Below, one piece after another: positions 127-6,346 of a stretch of DNA of 6,346 nt. The notes under the pieces were generated by a model. It was not told the origin of the DNA. It saw only the letters and a program-made list of their open reading frames with translations, and did no database searches. A program made the position numbers and the translations under genes. The stretch is from assembly GCF_036507355.1 (NCBI RefSeq), contig NZ_AP027881.1; one strand, 5' to 3'. The stretch comes from Escherichia coli (GTDB taxonomy: Bacteria; Pseudomonadota; Gammaproteobacteria; Enterobacterales; Enterobacteriaceae). The stretch's first letter is position 1. Every line of letters starts with the position of its first letter.

Positions 127-588
127 ATGCAAAACATTCTGATGAATCTGGCGTTTTATCTCCTGGTTGTTGCTGCCGGCGCCAGCTTTTCCCTGCAACA
201 GGCGGCCAACAACCATCTTCGCGCAGAACTGCTTTCACCATGGTGGGCAGGTTTCATCAGTTATGTCGGCGGTTCCCTGGCCATGCTGGTCATGGCGCTG
301 GTTTGTCGCGGCCCTGGCCTGTCATGGGATATGCTTTCGCGTACCAGCCCGTTTTCATGGACAGGCGGTATTTTAGGGGCGATTTACATTGCCACGGCCA
401 TTTTCATGATCCCGAAACTGGGAGCAACAACGGTTCTGGCATTGATGGTGGTCGGGCAAATGCTGCTTTCCCTGATGCTCGATCACTATGGCCTTCTTGG
501 TATCCCGGTTTATCCTGTCACCGGTATCCGCCTGCTGGGCGTTGTCCTGCTTGTTCTTGGGGTAGTGCTGATCAGATGGCAGGCATAA
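127..588 (+). CDS. Small inner-membrane protein, DMT-superfamily (YdcZ/DUF606-like), 153 aa
   Basis: Intact ORF; product is almost entirely hydrophobic with several predicted TM helices and resembles the DUF606 small transporter family from memory. GC-rich codon usage explains the overlapping alternative-frame ORFs. Weak GAG-type SD upstream. Stop codon directly abuts the IS6-family remnant. Confidence 0.6.
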   Translation: MQNILMNLAFYLLVVAAGASFSLQQAANNHLRAELLSPWWAGFISYVGGSLAMLVMALVCRGPGLSWDMLSRTSPFSWTGGILGAIYIATAIFMIPKLGATTVLALMVVGQMLLSLMLDHYGLLGIPVYPVTGIRLLGVVLLVLGVVLIRWQA

Positions 589-589
589 G

Positions 590-817
590 ATCAAGGGATT
601 CGAAGTCATGCGAGCCCTGCGCAAAGGACAGGCTCGCCCCTGGTGCCTGCAGCCCGGCATCAGGGGCGAGGTGCGCCTTGTGGAGAGAGCTTTTGGCATT
701 GGGCCCTCGGCGCTGACGGAGGCCATGGGCATGCTCAACCACCATTTCGCAGCAGCCGCCTGATCGGCGCAGAGCGACAGCCTACCTCTGACTGCCGCCA
801 ATCTTTGCAACAGAGCC
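590..817 (+). mobile_element. Remnant (3' end only) of an IS6-family insertion sequence, distinct from IS26
   Basis: Frame starting at 590 translates to IKGFEVMRALRKGQA...GEVRLVERAF, matching the C-terminus of the IS26 transposase in this window (KGIEVMRALRKGQASAFYYGDPLGEMRLVSRVFEM) at protein but not nucleotide level. Stop at 761-763 is followed 54 bp later by TTTGCAACAGAGCC (804-817), 13/14 identical to the IS26 terminal inverted repeat, with the same stop-to-end spacing as IS26. Confidence 0.55.
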
Positions 818-938
818 CTTGCGCGCATACTCATGCATGCCGTAAAAACAGAGCCTGCGCGTTTCTGGCGGGTTTTCGGGTGGTTTGTTGCCTGTTTTAC
901 CGGTTTCCCGTCAGAAACGCCCTCAGAGCCTCTCAGGC

Positions 939-966
939 GGTGCACGCAAGGGATGTTATGGTAAAT
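939..966 (+). other. XerC/XerD-type recombination core, site 1 (GGTGCACGCAA-GGGATG-TTATGGTAAAT)
   Basis: 28-bp site: 11-bp XerC-like arm, 6-bp central region, 11-bp XerD arm identical to the cer XerD arm as I recall it (TTATGGTAAAT). One of three direct copies in the window. Confidence 0.75.
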
Positions 967-1033
967 ATCGTTTATGTTGATTAACAAATTAAAAGATAAG
1001 ATTATTCCTACTTCTCTATTTTCTGGGGCTTTT

Positions 1034-1267
1034 ATGAAAAAGGTAATTCTCTCATTGGTTTTTCTGTCATCAGTAATTCTTGCTGGCTGCTCAAGCCAAG
1101 CAGGTCCATTTGTGACCAACATTAGCAGTGATGGTAGAGGTGGGCTTGTCGTTGAGAAATGTATGGTTCGCCTTGATAGAATGATTAATACCGTTGAATC
1201 ATCTAGCTGCACTAATTCAAGTATTACTCTGTCCTCACCATCTTCTAGCTCGACACTGACTCGTTAG
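1034..1267 (+). CDS. Small lipoprotein of unknown function, 77 aa, low GC
   Basis: ORF with signal peptide MKKVILSLVFLSSVILAGC (lipobox LAGC); GGGG 6 nt upstream of the ATG at 1034. The track ORF starts at 974, but that start has no SD and falls before the signal peptide. Ser-rich C-terminus. No family recognised. Confidence 0.55.
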   Translation: MKKVILSLVFLSSVILAGCSSQAGPFVTNISSDGRGGLVVEKCMVRLDRMINTVESSSCTNSSITLSSPSSSSTLTR

Positions 1268-1282
1268 ATTTCATGTTGCTAC

Positions 1283-1311
1283 TTGAGATTATTTAATTCA
1301 GCGGGTAGTCT
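1283..1311 (+). promoter_or_regulatory. RNA II (primer) promoter of ColE1-type replicon 1
   Basis: TTGAGA (-35), 17-bp spacer, TAGTCT (-10), positioned as in the pMB1 RNA II promoter (TTGAGA...TAATCT) just upstream of the RNA I terminator complement. Confidence 0.55.
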
Positions 1312-1321
1312 TTCGCTTGAA

Positions 1322-1425
1322 AAAGAAAAAACCGCCCTGCAAGGCGGTTTTTCGAAGGTTCTCTGAGCTACCAACTCTTTGAACCGAGGTAACTGGCTTG
1401 GAGGAGCACAGTCACCAAAACTTGT
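1322..1425 (-). ncRNA. RNA I antisense copy-number control RNA, replicon 1
   Basis: Complement of the RNA II 5' region. 5' end placed by alignment to pMB1 RNA I (ACAGTATTTGG vs ACAAGTTTTGG here); 3' end is the hairpin ACCGCCTTGCAGGGCGGT plus U-run. Ends approximate to about 5 nt. Confidence 0.7.
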
Positions 1426-2432
1426 CCTTTCAGTTTAGCCTTAACCGGCGCATAACTTCAAGACTAACTCCTCTAAATCAATTACCAGTGGCTGCTGCCA
1501 GTGGCGCTTTTGCATGTCTTTCCGGGTTGGACTCAAGTCGATAGTTACCGGAACAGGCGCAGCAGTCGGACTGAACGGGGGGTTCGTGCATACAGTCCAG
1601 CTTGGAGCGAACTGCCTTCCCGGAACCGAGTGTCAGGCGTGGAATGAGATAAACGCGGCCATAACAGCGGAATGACACCGGTAAACCGAAAGGCAGGAAC
1701 AGGAGAGCGCACGAGGGAGCTACCAGGGGGAAACGCCTGGGATCTTTATAGTCCTGTCGGGTTTCGCCGCCACTGATTTGAGCGTCAGATTTTGTGATGC
1801 TTGTCAGGGGGGCGGAGCCTATGGAAAAACGGCAACGCCGCTTCCTTTTCTCTTCCTTTCCCAATTTGATTGCTACTAGCCTACTCCTTTACTTCTGAGC
1901 CGGTAACGCCCGCCGCAGTCTCACGTCCGGAGCGTAGCGACCGAGTGAGCGAGGAGGCGTAATTTCATCGACTCCTGCATTTTTCACTTACGCCCTACAG
2001 CTACATTTTTCACCTGCCAGGGGTCAGTTTGGATATAGAGAATTATTGTACGGTAAGCCTGTTTTTTGAACAGACTTACCTATAGCAATAGGGTGTACTC
2101 CCGCGCTATACGGCATTTTCAGAGGTTTGACCTTAATCGGATAACCTAAATGCGATACTGCAAGAGCGACAACTTAAAAGCGATAGCCACTGACGCAAAA
2201 TCAACCCCTTACGAACCAAGATTGGTTAAATAATGCGCTTAACGTACAAAAATTTCCGATCTCCAAACTGACCCCTTCTTCGCCTCTTATGTTTCTCGAA
2301 TGAATCGATGGGGACAGGAAATGTTTTGTGGCCACCGCCGCTTCGCCGGCACCACAAAACTGTCGGACAAGATGTGTTTTTGGAGTACCGCCGGCACCAA
2401 AAACATTTCATCAGGCGCAGCCTGATACCCTG

Positions 2433-2452
2433 AATTTCGTACGTACGAAATT
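2433..2452. repeat. Perfect 20-bp palindrome AATTTCGTACGTACGAAATT
   Basis: Exactly self-complementary; lies in a gene-free tract that also holds two tandem hairpin units (2323-2360, 2375-2405). Confidence 0.8.
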
Positions 2453-2850
2453 TTGCTTTTGTTCAGATCGAGGGCAGGATTCGCAAAGTGCTGGCGTTTG
2501 TGCTCACATCCTTTAGACGTTGCGATGCAGGATAGGGCAGACGCCGCAAAATGACGTCATTTGCGGTATCTGCCCCGAAAACAGAATGTTTTCTCCTGAG
2601 CCTGCAGCTGGCTCTCAGAACCCCTACCGCCTCGCAAAGCTCGTTGCTCAACGCCTCACGACCGCACAGTAAACTGTGCACCCGTTCACCGTTATCGATG
2701 GGGTTCAGCGAGCCTTTTGAGCAGTTCGCAGGATTTTAGCCGCTAAAATTCCGGCCAGGCATGTTCGTGCATAGCCATGCAGATGCGCAGAAATCATCAG
2801 GCGCGTTTTTCAGGGGTTGGTGCTGGGAAAGGTGCCGGAAACGGCCCGTT

Positions 2851-2878
2851 CGCCTCAAAATGGCTCTGAGGCGTTTTC
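2851..2878 (+). terminator. Hairpin plus T-run just upstream of Xer site 2
   Basis: CGCCTCA-aaatggctc-TGAGGCG followed by TTTTC. The same GCCTCA/TGAGGC stem recurs before site 3 and in degenerate form before site 1, so it may be part of the recombination-site module rather than only a terminator. Confidence 0.35.
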
Positions 2879-2881
2879 AGC

Positions 2882-2909
2882 GGTGCGGGCAAGGGATGTT
2901 ATGGTAAAT
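2882..2909 (+). other. XerC/XerD-type recombination core, site 2 (GGTGCGGGCAA-GGGATG-TTATGGTAAAT)
   Basis: Same architecture and identical central region and XerD arm as site 1; direct orientation. Confidence 0.75.
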
Positions 2910-2944
2910 TGCTCATCACAGTAGCCAGTTAAGCAGAGGTTAGA

Positions 2945-3271
2945 ATGTTTGGGTTTTTTAAGAAAAAAAAGCTCTATGAAGAGATCTGTAAAGATGCAGG
3001 GATGGCTTTATCTGATGGGTTATTGGCCCAAGGCTTAGCGAGAAACAAAATAGAAGCAATGGGGGCTGGTGCTGTTTTTAGTCAGTCTTTGAGGGAGGCT
3101 GTTTCTCAAGGTTACAAGTCTTCTGATGCGATTGCTGAAGCAAGAAAAAACACATCTCATCATCTAGCTGCTAGAGGGTTTGATTTTGAAACGATCGCAA
3201 GTGCGATTGATGTTTTTTGTACTGCTACAGCATTTGAATCAATGTTAGATCTTGCTCGCGATAAAGGCTGA
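2945..3271 (+). CDS. Hypothetical cytoplasmic protein, 108 aa, low GC
   Basis: ORF with good SD (GAGG 6 nt upstream of ATG); no signal peptide; lysine-rich N-terminus (MFGFFKKKK). Bracketed by Xer sites 2 and 3. No family recognised. Confidence 0.6.
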   Translation: MFGFFKKKKLYEEICKDAGMALSDGLLAQGLARNKIEAMGAGAVFSQSLREAVSQGYKSSDAIAEARKNTSHHLAARGFDFETIASAIDVFCTATAFESMLDLARDKG

Positions 3272-3303
3272 ATATCGAGAGGAGTGACGGGTTGTTATCA
3301 TTA

Positions 3304-3330
3304 GCCTCAGAGTAGATTTGAGGCCTTTTG
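3304..3330 (+). terminator. Hairpin plus T-run after the 108-aa ORF, immediately upstream of Xer site 3
   Basis: GCCTCA-gagtagatt-TGAGGC followed by CTTTTG, 33 nt after the ORF stop; same stem as the site 2 hairpin. Confidence 0.4.
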
Positions 3331-3333
3331 GGC

Positions 3334-3361
3334 GGTGTATGCAGGAGATGTTATGGTAAAT
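3334..3361 (+). other. XerC/XerD-type recombination core, site 3 (GGTGTATGCAG-GAGATG-TTATGGTAAAT)
   Basis: XerD arm identical to sites 1 and 2; XerC arm and central region diverged; direct orientation. Confidence 0.7.
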
Positions 3362-3428
3362 ATGTCTTATTGAGAATATTCTTACTAATGCGCGGTTTTT
3401 TTCTAATTTTTAAATGGATGACTTAAAA

Positions 3429-3806
3429 ATGAAGGCAAGATTTTTTGCAGCCTTGCTTATTACTTTTTTTCTTTCTGGATGTGCGACAGAGGCGGGATAT
3501 CAAAGGGTATTAAATTCATGGATGGGATCTACTGATGTGAGCTTGATTCAGTCATGGGGGCCGCCTCAGCAATCTTATGAACTTTCTGGCCATACCTTCC
3601 TAGTTTATTCAAATAGCTCTAGCTCTTATATACCTGGAGTGGCTCCTACCTATCAGACTACGTTTATTGGTAATACAGCGTATACAAACACCTATGGCGG
3701 CTCGCCCGGCTTTAATGTTAGCTACTCATGTACTACGACTTTTGAGGTTGTTGGCGGGAAAATTGTTAACTGGCGTTATCAGGGCAACAATTGCACATCG
3801 CGTTAG
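3429..3806 (+). CDS. Lipoprotein of unknown function, 125 aa, low GC
   Basis: Signal peptide MKARFFAALLITFFLSGC (lipobox LSGC). Start at 3429 preferred over the track start at 3414 because it begins the signal peptide. Mature part is Ser/Thr/Tyr/Gly-rich with two Cys near the C-terminus. No family recognised. Confidence 0.65.
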   Translation: MKARFFAALLITFFLSGCATEAGYQRVLNSWMGSTDVSLIQSWGPPQQSYELSGHTFLVYSNSSSSYIPGVAPTYQTTFIGNTAYTNTYGGSPGFNVSYSCTTTFEVVGGKIVNWRYQGNNCTSR

Positions 3807-3973
3807 TCGTGTGTCCAATCGTAGTATCAGGTGAAGATACAATAGAGAACTTAATACCCTCTTGGTGGGTATATAAAAACCAAGATGAGCGTAGCGACCT
3901 TCTTTAAACTCGTTCCTTGTGTGTCTTACCCTGCAAAAGGTTTGATTGTGTGGGTGTAAATGAAATCGTTGCG

Positions 3974-4003
3974 TTGACAGTTACATGTGACGAGATGTAG
4001 TCT
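3974..4003 (+). promoter_or_regulatory. RNA II (primer) promoter of ColE1-type replicon 2
   Basis: TTGACA (-35), 18-bp spacer, TAGTCT (-10), directly upstream of the RNA I terminator complement. Confidence 0.55.
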
Positions 4004-4011
4004 CTAAAACG

Positions 4012-4112
4012 AAAAAACCGCCCTGCAAGGCGGTTTTTTCGAAGGTTCTCTGAGCTACCAACTCTTTGAACCGAGGTAACTGGCTTGGAGGAGCGCAGTC
4101 ACCAAAACTGTT
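4012..4112 (-). ncRNA. RNA I antisense copy-number control RNA, replicon 2
   Basis: Same reasoning as replicon 1 RNA I; terminator hairpin ACCGCCTTGCAGGGCGGT plus U-run at the 3' end. Ends approximate. Confidence 0.7.
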
Positions 4113-4693
4113 CGTTTAGTTTAGCCTTAACCGGCGCATAACTTCAAGACTATCTCCTCTAAATCAGTTACCAGTGGCTACCGCCAATGGCGATTTGTCG
4201 TGTCTTTCCGGGTTGGACTCAAGACGATAGTTACCGGAACGGGCGTGGTAGTCGGACTGAACGGGGGGTTCGTGCATACAGTCCAGCTTGGAGCGAACTG
4301 CCTACCCGGAACTGAGTGTCAGGCGTGGAATGAGATAAACGCGGCCATAACAGCGGAATGACACCGGTAAACCGAAAGGCAGGAACAGGAGAGCGCACGA
4401 GGGAGCCACCAGGGGGAAACGCCTGGGATCTTTAAGTCCTGTCGGGTTTCGCCACCACTGATTTGAGCGTCAGATTTCGTGATGCTTGTCAGGGGGGCGG
4501 AGCCTATGGAAAAACGCCCGCCGGGGCGTGGCCTTTTCGCCCTTGTCCTTAGCTTTCGTTATGCTTACCGTTACGTTATCTGCTTATCCTCCCTCCGCTC
4601 GCCGCAGACTCATGACCGAACGGAGTGAGCGAATGAGCGAGGAAGCGGAAAACAATCAGAACGTACAGTAAGCACTTTCGCGCCGGGGCCTTC

Positions 4694-4885
4694 ATGAACA
4701 AACAACAAAAGACAGCCGTTAACATGGCTAAATTCATCCAGGATCAGTCCCTGCTTCTTCTGGACAGGCTTAATGAGCTGGATCTGGATCATGAGGCTGA
4801 TTTCTGCGAGAAACTCCATGAGGATGCGGAACGCCTTTACCGAAGCCTGTCAGCGCGCCTGAATGAGCAGCAGGACGGTGCGTAA
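4694..4885 (+). CDS. rop: Rop/Rom (RNA one modulator) homolog, 63 aa
   Basis: Same length as pMB1 Rop, with clear similarity along the whole protein as recalled (MTKQEKTALNMARFIRSQTLTLLEKLNELDADEQADICESLHDHADELYRSCLARF vs MNKQQKTAVNMAKFIQDQSLLLLDRLNELDLDHEADFCEKLHEDAERLYRSLSARL here). Confidence 0.85.
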   Translation: MNKQQKTAVNMAKFIQDQSLLLLDRLNELDLDHEADFCEKLHEDAERLYRSLSARLNEQQDGA

Positions 4886-4898
4886 TGTCTCCGTTCTG

Positions 4899-4918
4899 GG
4901 TATTACCGGAGTAATACC
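4899..4918. repeat. Perfect hairpin/palindrome GGTATTAC-cgga-GTAATACC downstream of rop
   Basis: 8-bp perfect stem with 4-nt loop. A second palindrome with the same half-site, TATTACC-cc-GGTAATA, lies at 4957-4972. Confidence 0.6.
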
Positions 4919-5188
4919 GGCATCGCCTTAATTTTCATTGTCTTAGCGCTTAACATTATTACCCCGGTAATACCCACAATCCCTGTATTTTTTCTTTTTT
5001 ATTTATTTTTCATGAAGTTGCGATGAAAATCGCAGCTGCGTTAGGTGTATGACCATTTTGAGGTTGAAAAATAATCAACCATGGCGGGTGATTTACGCAG
5101 GTTAAGGGGAGATCGTGACAAAAAAAAGCGTTCCTCACTGTATCGTTCATGCCTGCATGAACGGGTTATTCTTCCTGACTACAGAATT

Positions 5189-5340
5189 ACATCGCTCCTT
5201 CAGTTCATACATCACTTTTACAACACTTTTACAACACTCCTTCGGCCTGTACATCACTTTTACAACACTTTTGCATCACTTTTACATCATTTATACATCA
5301 CTTTTACATCATTCCTTCAGCTCATACGTCACTTTCATCC
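5189..5340. repeat. Tract of roughly 11-bp tandem repeats (core ACAxCACTTTT), iteron-like
   Basis: Repeated units ACATCACTTTT / ACAACACTTTT / GCATCACTTTT / ACATCATTT across about 150 bp, bracketed by direct repeats CCTTCAGTTCATACATCACTTT (5197-5218) and CCTTCAGCTCATACGTCACTTT (5314-5335). The ORFs the track predicts here are repeat-translation artefacts. Confidence 0.7.
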
Positions 5341-5526: not shown

Positions 5527-6346
5527 GGCACTGTTGCAAAGTTAGCGATGAGGCAGCCTTTTGTCTTATTCAAAGGCCTTACATTTCAAAAACTCTGCTT
5601 ACCAGGCGCATTTCGCCCAGGGGATCACCATAATAAAATGCTGAGGCCTGGCCTTTGCGTAGTGCACGCATCACCTCAATACCTTTGATGGTGGCGTAAG
5701 CCGTCTTCATGGATTTAAATCCCAGCGTGGCGCCGATTATCCGTTTCAGTTTGCCATGATCGCATTCAATCACGTTGTTCCGGTACTTAATCTGTCGGTG
5801 TTCAACGTCAGACGGGCACCGGCCTTCGCGTTTGAGCAGAGCAAGCGCGCGACCATAGGCGGGCGCTTTATCCGTGTTGATGAATCGCGGGATCTGCCAC
5901 TTCTTCACGTTGTTGAGGATTTTACCCAGAAACCGGTATGCAGCTTTGCTGTTACGACGGGAGGAGAGATAAAAATCGACAGTGCGGCCCCGGCTGTCGA
6001 CGGCCCGGTACAGATACGCCCAGCGGCCATTGACCTTCACGTAGGTTTCATCCATGTGCCACGGGCAAAGATCGGAAGGGTTACGCCAGTACCAGCGCAG
6101 CCGTTTTTCCATTTCAGGCGCATAACGCTGAACCCAGCGGTAAATCGTGGAGTGATCGACATTCACTCCGCGTTCAGCCAGCATCTCCTGCAGCTCACGG
6201 TAACTGATGCCGTATTTGCAGTACCAGCGTACGGCCCACAGAATGATGTCACGCTGAAAATGCCGGCCTTTGAATGGGTTCATGTGCAGCTCCATCAGCA
6301 AAAGGGGATGATAAGTTTATCACCACCGACTATTTGCAACAGTGCC
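5527..6346 (-). mobile_element. IS26 (IS6 family), complete 820-bp copy
   Basis: 14-bp terminal inverted repeats GGCACTGTTGCAAA at 5527-5540 and its reverse complement at 6333-6346; length 820 bp; encodes the canonical Tnp26 sequence. The element ends at the last base of the window. Confidence 0.95.
5579..6283 (-). CDS. tnp26: IS26 transposase Tnp26, 234 aa
   Basis: Translation MNPFKGRHFQRDIILWAVRWYCKYGISYRELQEMLAERG...GEMRLVSRVFEM matches IS26 transposase as recalled. The track ORF carries a 6-codon upstream extension (MLMELH) that is probably not translated. Confidence 0.95.
   Translation of the reverse strand: MNPFKGRHFQRDIILWAVRWYCKYGISYRELQEMLAERGVNVDHSTIYRWVQRYAPEMEKRLRWYWRNPSDLCPWHMDETYVKVNGRWAYLYRAVDSRGRTVDFYLSSRRNSKAAYRFLGKILNNVKKWQIPRFINTDKAPAYGRALALLKREGRCPSDVEHRQIKYRNNVIECDHGKLKRIIGATLGFKSMKTAYATIKGIEVMRALRKGQASAFYYGDPLGEMRLVSRVFEM

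Follow-up and report, generated by a model that had tools for sequence, protein, structure and literature searches.

Extended -10 resemblance at three plasmid Xer cores, a probable by-product of the XerD half-site

The promoter-like sequence at the head of the piece shown above is the XerD-binding arm of a cer/parB-type Xer core, one of three in the window (the whole 6,346-nt stretch of DNA that was analysed) that joined small ColE1-type plasmid modules. The sequence-only reading of this DNA had noticed that the arm ends in TGgTAAAT(T/A), which resembles an extended -10 element, and had proposed that each recombination site supplies the promoter of the gene behind it, making every cassette transcriptionally self-contained. 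Sequence comparison suggests that the resemblance is a by-product of the XerD half-site and was not selected for self-contained cassettes. XerD binding suffices to explain why the arm is conserved, and a motif that is part of a conserved half-site is present whatever lies downstream. The reading that we favour, with a probability of about 0.5, is that the core makes no meaningful contribution to transcription, ORF1 and ORF3 using promoters of their own and ORF2 being reached by read-through. A core promoter is plausible at site 2, as a candidate only, and would not be a general design.

The pattern GGTGNNNGCANGNGATGTTATGGTAAAT matched the window three times, each time on the + strand, against 0 matches expected from shuffled sequences (Table 1). 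The three cores are direct repeats built of an 11-bp XerC arm, a 6-bp central region and an 11-bp XerD arm, the last being identical in all of them. This is the composition of a cer/parB-type core (11-bp XerC arm, 6-8-bp central region, XerD arm TTATGGTAAAT), and the same architecture was found in ColE1 and in 48 distinct cores from public contigs. Plasmid Xer cores are oriented like RNAII as a rule (PMC2831885), and the cores of the window likewise share the + strand with RNAII. ColE1-like XerD sites differ from the XerD consensus of proteobacteria by a single G/T exchange (PMC5935869). Upstream of site 2 the DNA is cer-like, with a TGCATAG...CA box that resembles, by eye only, the ColE1 region at ~3786-3805. 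The parB site of CloDF13 and the mwr site of pJHCMW1 have a 6-bp central region as well (XerC arm GGTGCRNNCAA, a central region such as GGGATG or CAGATG, XerD arm TTATGGTAAAT), and the cores described here are like them in the layout of arms and central region and in orientation relative to RNAII. They differ in that core 3 has a deviant XerC arm (GGTGTATGCAG) and ORF2 coding sequence where the accessory sequences (~180 bp, ArgR/PepA binding) would be, and in that core 1 has only ~124 bp of accessory DNA before an IS-like boundary.

Table 1. Features of the window, in order of position. Scores are heuristic promoter scores.
Feature	Position	Strand	Details
DMT_YdcZ membrane protein	127-588		
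Xer core 1	939-966	+	XerC arm 939-949 GGTGCACGCAA; central region 950-955 GGGATG; XerD arm 956-966 TTATGGTAAAT
TGtTATGGT register, site 1	954-962	+	TGTTATGGT; poor -35 CAGGCG; score 4.7
Candidate cassette-internal ORF1 promoter	977-1005	+	TTGATT-17-GATTAT; score 7.4, best in 930-1030
ORF1	1034-1267	+	77-aa putative lipoprotein, MKKVILSL...LAGC, lipobox by inspection
RNAI gene 1	1323-1423	-	Rfam, permissive thresholds
Hairpin, site 2	stem 2851-2857/2867-2873, T run 2874-2877	+	CGCCTCA/TGAGGCG; 7 bp; -14.4 kcal/mol
Xer core 2 (site carrying the proposed promoter)	2882-2909	+	XerC arm 2882-2892 GGTGCGGGCAA; central region 2893-2898 GGGATG; XerD arm 2899-2909
TGtTATGGT register, site 2	2897-2905	+	TGTTATGGT; -35-like TTCAGC 2876-2881, 18-bp spacer; score 8.0
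TGgTAAATN register, site 2	2902-2910	+	TGGTAAATT; fits TGNTANNNT, the only one of the three
ORF2	2945-3271	+	108 aa, no Pfam family
Extended -10-like element upstream of site-3 hairpin	3293-3301	+	TGTTATCAT; score 8.6, highest in 3200-3350
Hairpin, site 3	stem ~3304-3309/3319-3324, T run 3326-3329	+	GCCTCA/TGAGGC; -12.4 kcal/mol
Xer core 3	3334-3361	+	XerC arm 3334-3344 GGTGTATGCAG (deviant); central region 3345-3350 GAGATG; XerD arm 3351-3361
TGtTATGGT register, site 3	3349-3357	+	TGTTATGGT; -35-like TTGGGC 3328-3333, 18-bp spacer; score 8.3
Candidate cassette-internal ORF3 promoter	3379-3407	+	TTCTTA-17-TCTAAT; score 5.8
ORF3	3429-3806	+	125-aa putative lipoprotein, MKARFF...LSGC, lipobox by inspection
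RNAI gene 2	4009-4110	-	Rfam, permissive thresholds
Rop homolog	4694-4885		
IS26-family transposase ORF	5579-6301	-	

The window is a patchwork of modules from small ColE1-type plasmids. Both RNAI genes lie on the - strand, so there are two RNAII/ori units on the + strand; beyond these two genes, Rfam at permissive thresholds gave no match at or near the cores and none that was Rcd-like. Positions 933-2909 correspond to complete circular plasmids of 1,943 bp (such as NZ_CP071398 and NZ_CP080064) at 99.6-99.8% identity. Therefore, a whole mini-plasmid lies between cores 1 and 2, and core 1 is a plasmid-fusion joint. From core 2 onward the DNA matches 3.2-kb plasmids such as NZ_CP034051, a match that spans ORF2, core 3, ORF3, the second origin and the Rop homolog, and cores 2 and 3 enclose a one-gene mini-cassette of about 452 bp. 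DNA exchange at such cores is seen in the bounded 1,943-bp plasmid, in a module swap at a metagenome locus (L149) and in 107 clusters of distinct downstream junctions. The metagenome locus carries the window's cassette 2, has a site-2 junction with the central region GGGGTG, and keeps the XerC side of core 3 in front of a different downstream module.

Two registers of the core resemble an extended -10 element. In the register of the sequence-only reading, TGgTAAATN, the letters are as it gave them at all three sites, but they fit an extended -10 element at site 2 only. The T at -7 is near-invariant in -10 elements and one of their two most conserved positions. The base after the arm, which occupies this position, is T at 2910 and A at 967 and 3362. 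Site 2 thus has TG at -15/-14 and a hexamer with T-12, A-11, A-9 and T-7, whereas sites 1 and 3 read TGGTAAATA (959-967 and 3354-3362) with no T at -7. The TAAATA hexamer of sites 1 and 3 reaches 0.4 bits versus 5.2 for the TAAATT of site 2, where the whole candidate scores 5.9 on a heuristic log-odds scale, made from consensus frequencies and meant for ranking candidates only. Matches to the generic extended -10 pattern TGNTANNNT number 10 in the window, where 10.0 are expected.

The other register, TGtTATGGT, lies 5 bp upstream of TGgTAAATN and is found in all three cores, its TG being the end of the central region and its TATGGT being positions 2-7 of the XerD arm. TG stands at -15/-14 at all three sites in either register (TGG before TAAAT(N), TGT before TATGGT); A at -11 together with T at -7 is seen at site 2 only for TAAATN and at every site for TATGGT. 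From these letters, TGtTATGGT would be the better general promoter candidate, and TGgTAAATN would be a credible one at site 2 alone. The core candidate of sites 2 and 3 is the top promoter-like element of its region, at about the top 0.1% of window positions (13 of 12,620 score at least 8), and its -10 is identical to the one of galP1, a promoter that functions with no -35, an observation that speaks against the by-product view.

The genes behind the cores differ in how much room they leave for a promoter. The sequence-only reading had placed each cassette ORF 35-70 bp downstream of its site, and the starts indeed lie 67, 35 and 67 nt after the arm. The 67-nt leaders of ORF1 and ORF3 are AT-rich (ORF3 has an alternative ATG at 3414), and the two genes are most likely transcribed from promoter-like elements within them. 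At site 1 the leader element scores above the core candidate (7.4 vs 4.7). The leaders of ORF1 and ORF3 occur on no more than 7 and 3 plasmids, respectively, which at 99.7% identity or above are too uniform for phylogenetic footprinting. Other cassettes with leaders of ~60 nt carry promoter-like elements by inspection, namely TATAAT in one (L163) and TTGAAC-16-AATAAT in another (L143).

ORF2 is the only cassette gene without room for its own promoter, and no competing promoter fits in its 35-nt leader, where AGAGG stands five nt before the start. It is a real, conserved gene that falls into 8 protein clusters, with homologs in other contexts at 79-99% identity. Because only 35 nt separate the arm from the ATG, ORF2 would need either read-through or initiation in the core. 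Co-directional read-through would be the first possible source, with RNAII, the rop homolog, ORF2 and ORF3 all on the + strand, and weak initiation within the core would be the second. A homolog 94% identical in amino acids, on Rep3 plasmids, keeps the 35-nt leader and has co-oriented genes upstream. It sits behind GGTGCACGCAA GAAGGCA TTATGGTAAAT A, a core that lacks both the TG before TATGGT and, in the TGgTAAATN register, the T at -7. Homologs of 82% and 79% identity occur in an operon on F-like plasmids and in a chromosome, with no Xer site there. ORF2 thus persists behind a motif-less core, or with no Xer site at all, and so without either motif. In a further cassette (L238), only 11 nt separate the arm from the start of a gene that has a GGAGG Shine-Dalgarno sequence, hence its transcription must cross the core from upstream.

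The terminator-like hairpin that had been placed just upstream of each core is there at sites 2 and 3, followed by TTTT, but not at site 1, where the corresponding stretch is no more stably folded than its shuffles (z +0.3) and lacks a T run. The hairpins of sites 2 and 3 have GC-rich stems of 6-7 bp, only four T and z-scores of -1.25 and -1.58, and the terminator scan made no call at any of the three sites. A hairpin with T4 before the core would attenuate read-through. At site 3 it lies between the ORF2 stop codon and XerC arm 3 and would be the 3' hairpin of the cassette itself. No single consensus hairpin emerged from RNAalifold on 117 upstream regions, because several hairpin types are mixed. 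Two features here stand against the by-product view as well: hairpin and T4 would hinder read-through, and the 320 nt upstream of core 2 (+ strand, 2560-2900) have no strong predicted promoter, the best heuristic score being 4.7.

The T run of the site 2 hairpin ends 4 nt before XerC arm 2, and in ColE1 cer a small hairpin with a T run also ends just before the XerC arm. By this analogy the site 2 hairpin probably lies where the 3' end of Rcd would be; transcription of rcd runs in the RNAII direction, towards the core (PMC2831885). Its promoter, Pcer, lies inside the Xer site complex of ColE1 cer and is reported to be repressed by XerCD and FIS, so bound recombinase can silence a neighbouring promoter. 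The published Pcer spacer is 15 bp, and the ColE1 sequence TTGCAT-15-TAAAAT, upstream of a conserved GGGTGGTTTGTTGCC box, is on that ground probably Pcer. Unlike the elements considered here, Pcer is situated in the accessory sequences ~100 bp upstream of the core and yields a small RNA, not a cargo mRNA. Its equivalent upstream of site 2 is degenerate (GTGCAT-15-CAGAAA), as is the box. Upstream of site 1 the conserved 15-nt Rcd box GGGTGGTTTGTTGCC is present, and the promoter region is directly adjacent to the IS-like boundary.

Xer cores with this XerD arm were gathered from species-representative genomes and metagenomes. The first genome scan used a loose pattern, about 2/3 of whose matches were chance matches in unrelated genomes and were filtered out, and a tighter pattern was used for the metagenomes; 170 sites remained after removal of chance matches, forming the 107 junction clusters. 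Across the 170 sites the DNA upstream of the core is conserved and the downstream DNA is almost always different, the pattern that exchange of cargo at the core leaves. TAAAT is followed by A in 34 of the 107 junctions, by C in 33, by G in 21 and by T in 19 (18%). With a crude gene calling that took the nearest ORF of at least 70 aa, this ORF was convergent in 63 of 107 junctions (59%) and co-oriented within 120 nt in 15, where the base after the arm was A in seven, C in five, G in one and T in two. A central region ending in TG was found in 71/107 junctions, a breadth that again sits against the by-product view. Co-oriented ORFs within 120 nt followed 10 of these 71 TG-type cores and 5 of the 36 others, 14% in both cases. 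It seems clear enough that these junctions bear no visible trace of promoter use. In a search for an association of a short leader with T after TAAAT, ORF2 alone qualified. A second short-leader case (L161) was rejected, its ORF having only ~17 codons.

The alternative that survives best, which we consider possible but somewhat doubtful, is that the Xer core does act as an extended -10 promoter, though a weak one, which is open to occlusion by XerCD and matters chiefly for ORF2. TGtTATGGT, in all cores with a 6-bp central region, and TGgTAAATT at site 2 would then fire outward into the adjacent module; the TT of the T run would belong to a -35-like element, the XerC arm and central region would form the 18-bp spacer and the XerD arm would be the -10, so that each recombination joint would rebuild the promoter. 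Were the core to fire, TGtTATGGT would be the likelier element, with help from TTCAGC at site 2 and TTGGGC at site 3, each 18 bp upstream, and TGgTAAATT would offer a further start at site 2 alone. The scores of TGtTATGGT at sites 2 and 3 favour such a promoter, as does the want of room for another before ORF2, and a multicopy plasmid would be expected to amplify even weak activity. Starts are preferred at 7, then 8, then 9 nt past the -7 base, with A at least as good as G, followed by T and, far behind, C (PMC2613000). The TAAATT of site 2 has A2918 8 nt past its -7 base, which would give a 27-nt leader with a Shine-Dalgarno sequence, and TATGGT has a G 7-8 nt past -7 at site 3 (3364) and site 1 (970); at site 2, however, the positions predicted for TATGGT (2912-2914) are C, T and C. 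The orientation census and the Rep3 homolog of ORF2 also count against a core promoter, the one by showing no bias of cargo orientation behind TG-type cores, the other by its core without TG. Moreover, the XerD footprint covers the entire -10 and should occlude RNA polymerase. Since the -10 lies entirely inside the XerD arm, bound XerC/XerD would shut off a core promoter.

Two known promoters bear directly on this alternative. The imperfect extended -10 of galP1, TGnTATGGT, has no recognisable -35 and requires its TG (PMC2613000), and TGTTATGGT in all three cores is identical to it. However, galP1 depends on CRP or on A/T-rich upstream DNA (PMC2613000), whereas the candidate core elements have a GC-rich XerC arm in front of them and no evident CRP site or A/T tract upstream. 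The candidate registers of site 2 lie 5 bp apart, as do the two extended -10 promoters of gal, which overlap.

One cargo promoter that overlaps a cer core has been published: PR, the main promoter of the EcoRI restriction-modification system, was described as embedded in a pMB1/ColE1-type cer core (Mruk laboratory 2020, PMC7315355, a paper that refers to earlier mapping of the promoter). Its -35, TTAAGG, was placed in the 8-bp cer central region, with a potential extended -10 printed as TGTTAATTC; mutating the -35 T reduced restriction, and the authors regard PR as re-formed as a hybrid at every Xer crossover (PMC7315355). The likeness is considerable in layout, with a cargo operon directly behind the XerD arm, a promoter that overlaps XerC/XerD binding sites and an extended -10 that is invoked. 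In contrast, removing the Xer sites or mutating xerC, xerD, argR or pepA changed EcoRI expression little (PMC7315355), which weighs against a core promoter gated by the recombinase. The EcoRI promoter also differs in position: in the natural EcoRI plasmid pU90-3 the nearest -10 match, TGTTAATCT, starts 8 nt after the XerD arm and not inside it, and its distance from the stated -35 is 24 nt by count, a spacing that is not canonical. Loci L002, L034, L115 and L138 have EcoRI-like cassettes whose conserved leader stands behind three or more different Xer cores. At the cores of the window, with central regions GGGATG or GAGATG and unrelated leaders, no PR-type elements were found.

A third reading, which we think very unlikely, has cassette 3 driven from the 3' end of cassette 2, by a transcript that starts from TGTTATCAT (3293-3301) and passes the hairpin and core 3, so that expression of a module would depend on its upstream neighbour and not on the Xer core. 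This element outscores everything else in its stretch, and its TATCAT matches 5/6 and has TG; however, the start would fall within or just before hairpin and T4, and at the metagenome locus L149 the same 3' end precedes a convergent module. The proposal as first made, that the XerD arm end TGgTAAAT(T/A) is an extended -10 element that transcribes each of three self-contained cassettes, is scarcely credible and could not be upheld: it has in its favour the TG at all three sites, co-oriented ORFs at all three and an arm that, from Xer biology and the junction data, should never part from the DNA downstream, the crossover being 5' of the arm, but at sites 1 and 3 TAAATA lacks the T at -7, the majority of modules behind the arm are convergent, T follows TAAAT in few junctions, both among all of them and among those with nearby co-oriented ORFs, and a built-in promoter scan that needs a -35 and T at -7, and is blind to promoters with an extended -10 only, found nothing at the three cores.

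We think it unlikely that TG-type cores in general, with their exact galP1-type TGtTATGGT, serve as a recombinase-gated promoter for Xer-mobilised cargo. If TGtTATGGT did fire whenever XerC/XerD are unbound, expression of the downstream module would be coupled to Xer occupancy and, beyond that, to plasmid copy number or to the monomer, multimer or cointegrate state. The question matters because small ColE1-type plasmids exchange cargo at Xer sites, which includes restriction-modification genes in the sampled loci and reportedly resistance genes. A core that transcribes outward would give any gene beside the XerD arm a baseline expression that the recombinase can repress, which would partly explain how genes that lack a promoter, such as ORF2, can be of use once they arrive. 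The comparison suggests that the core does not do so at most junctions; cargo would then be expressed through cassette-borne promoters and read-through, and the resemblance would be a caution against reading promoters into protein-binding sites.

In the literature we found no proposal that the XerD arm itself acts as a -10 element, and the pdif literature examined contained no statement that a recombination site supplies a promoter. Integron cassettes are usually promoterless and use the promoter of the platform, and they recombine by IntI and attC, not by Xer. The modules of the window are like those of Acinetobacter pdif sites and like integron cassettes in that short recombination sites bound single-gene modules that move between replicons; the pdif modules differ in being bounded by inverted sites, whereas the cores described here are direct repeats.

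Several 1,943-bp circular ColE1-like plasmids (NZ_CP071398, NZ_CP080064 and others) correspond in their entirety to one interval of the window with 99.6-99.8% identity, and both ends of this interval carry an Xer core. Since the interval represents a complete plasmid with an Xer core at either end, the window is a cointegrate formed by Xer recombination, and it contains two RNAI/RNAII origins. A longer stretch of the window is also common to NZ_CP139186, a 6,370-bp plasmid.

Coordinates of features in the window and in comparison loci
Sequence	Position	Feature
Window	600-815	region of IS6-family-like repeat and ORF
Window	608-763	ORF opening with MRALRKGQA
Window	895-938	hairpin preceding the XerC arm, aligned with L183, L156 and L188 (alignment A1)
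Window	933-2909	interval equivalent to the 1,943-bp plasmids
Window	1320-5051	stretch shared with NZ_CP139186
Window	2893-3344	mini-cassette (~452 bp): XerD arm, 35-nt leader, ORF2, hairpin plus T4, deviant XerC arm GGTGTATGCAG
Window	3293-3301	TGTTATCAT
Window	5208-5311	9.6 tandem copies of the 11-bp unit TACATCACTTT (74% matches)
Window	5527-6346	complete IS26, ending the window
ColE1 (L001)	3909-3920	XerC arm plus first central-region base, containing TACAAT
pU90-3 (L002)	1110-1165	EcoRI-family leader
L149 (metagenome)	2702-3250	ORF2 mini-cassette
L238	2749-2900	91-aa ORF behind XerD arm

The mini-cassette holds a single gene between two direct Xer cores, and upstream of core 3 coding DNA takes the place of the expected accessory sequences. 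The same ORF2 mini-cassette recurs in a metagenome locus, where it is followed by a convergent module that differs from that of the window. A search of Pfam with the 108-aa ORF2 family gave no match. Homologs of ORF2 (L243-L250) include an operon member on F-like conjugative plasmids and a chromosomal copy that has an Rpn (Transposase_31) gene and an RND efflux operon beside it. Past the ORF2 stop codon but ahead of the site-3 hairpin, TGTTATCAT forms a strong extended -10-like motif (TATCAT, 5/6 matches) directed towards core 3 and ORF3.

EcoRI-family restriction-modification cassettes (in pU90-3 and in L034, L115 and L138) share a conserved leader, tatgttaaTctaNc...tataaaataaca, although the Xer core that precedes it varies, with three or more distinct cores represented. 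The published EcoRI -35 is TTAAGG, and an ATAAGG variant has been reported to lower restriction (PMC7315355); ATAAGG is the natural sequence in pU90-3. By our count, 24 nt lie between the published -35 and the extended -10. In L238, the 91-aa ORF has a GGAGG Shine-Dalgarno sequence and starts only 11 nt past the XerD arm, so its transcript has to begin inside the Xer core or upstream of it. In ColE1, TACAAT matches 5/6 of the -10 consensus, falls within the stretch made up of the XerC arm and the first central-region base, and scores 7.5 with CTGAAC as the -35 in a heuristic log-odds ranking; it is a further promoter-like string within an Xer core.

The hairpin preceding the XerC arm occurs in several types, with compensatory changes among relatives (cctgag...ctcagg versus cctcag...ctgagg). 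Site 1 of the window and L188 carry the mismatched mix cctcag...ctcagg, which looks as if it had recombined inside the hairpin.

Towards the window ends, the tandem array has the Rop homolog on one side and, on the other, a cer-like accessory remnant that IS26 cuts at ~5527. At the other end, MRALRKGQA matches a motif that the IS26 transposase ORF carries close to its C-terminus, and 3' of the ORF it opens an IS6-family-like inverted repeat, which we take to be IS6100-like, finishes near 815. This repeat and ORF adjoin the accessory region of core 1, which is shortened.
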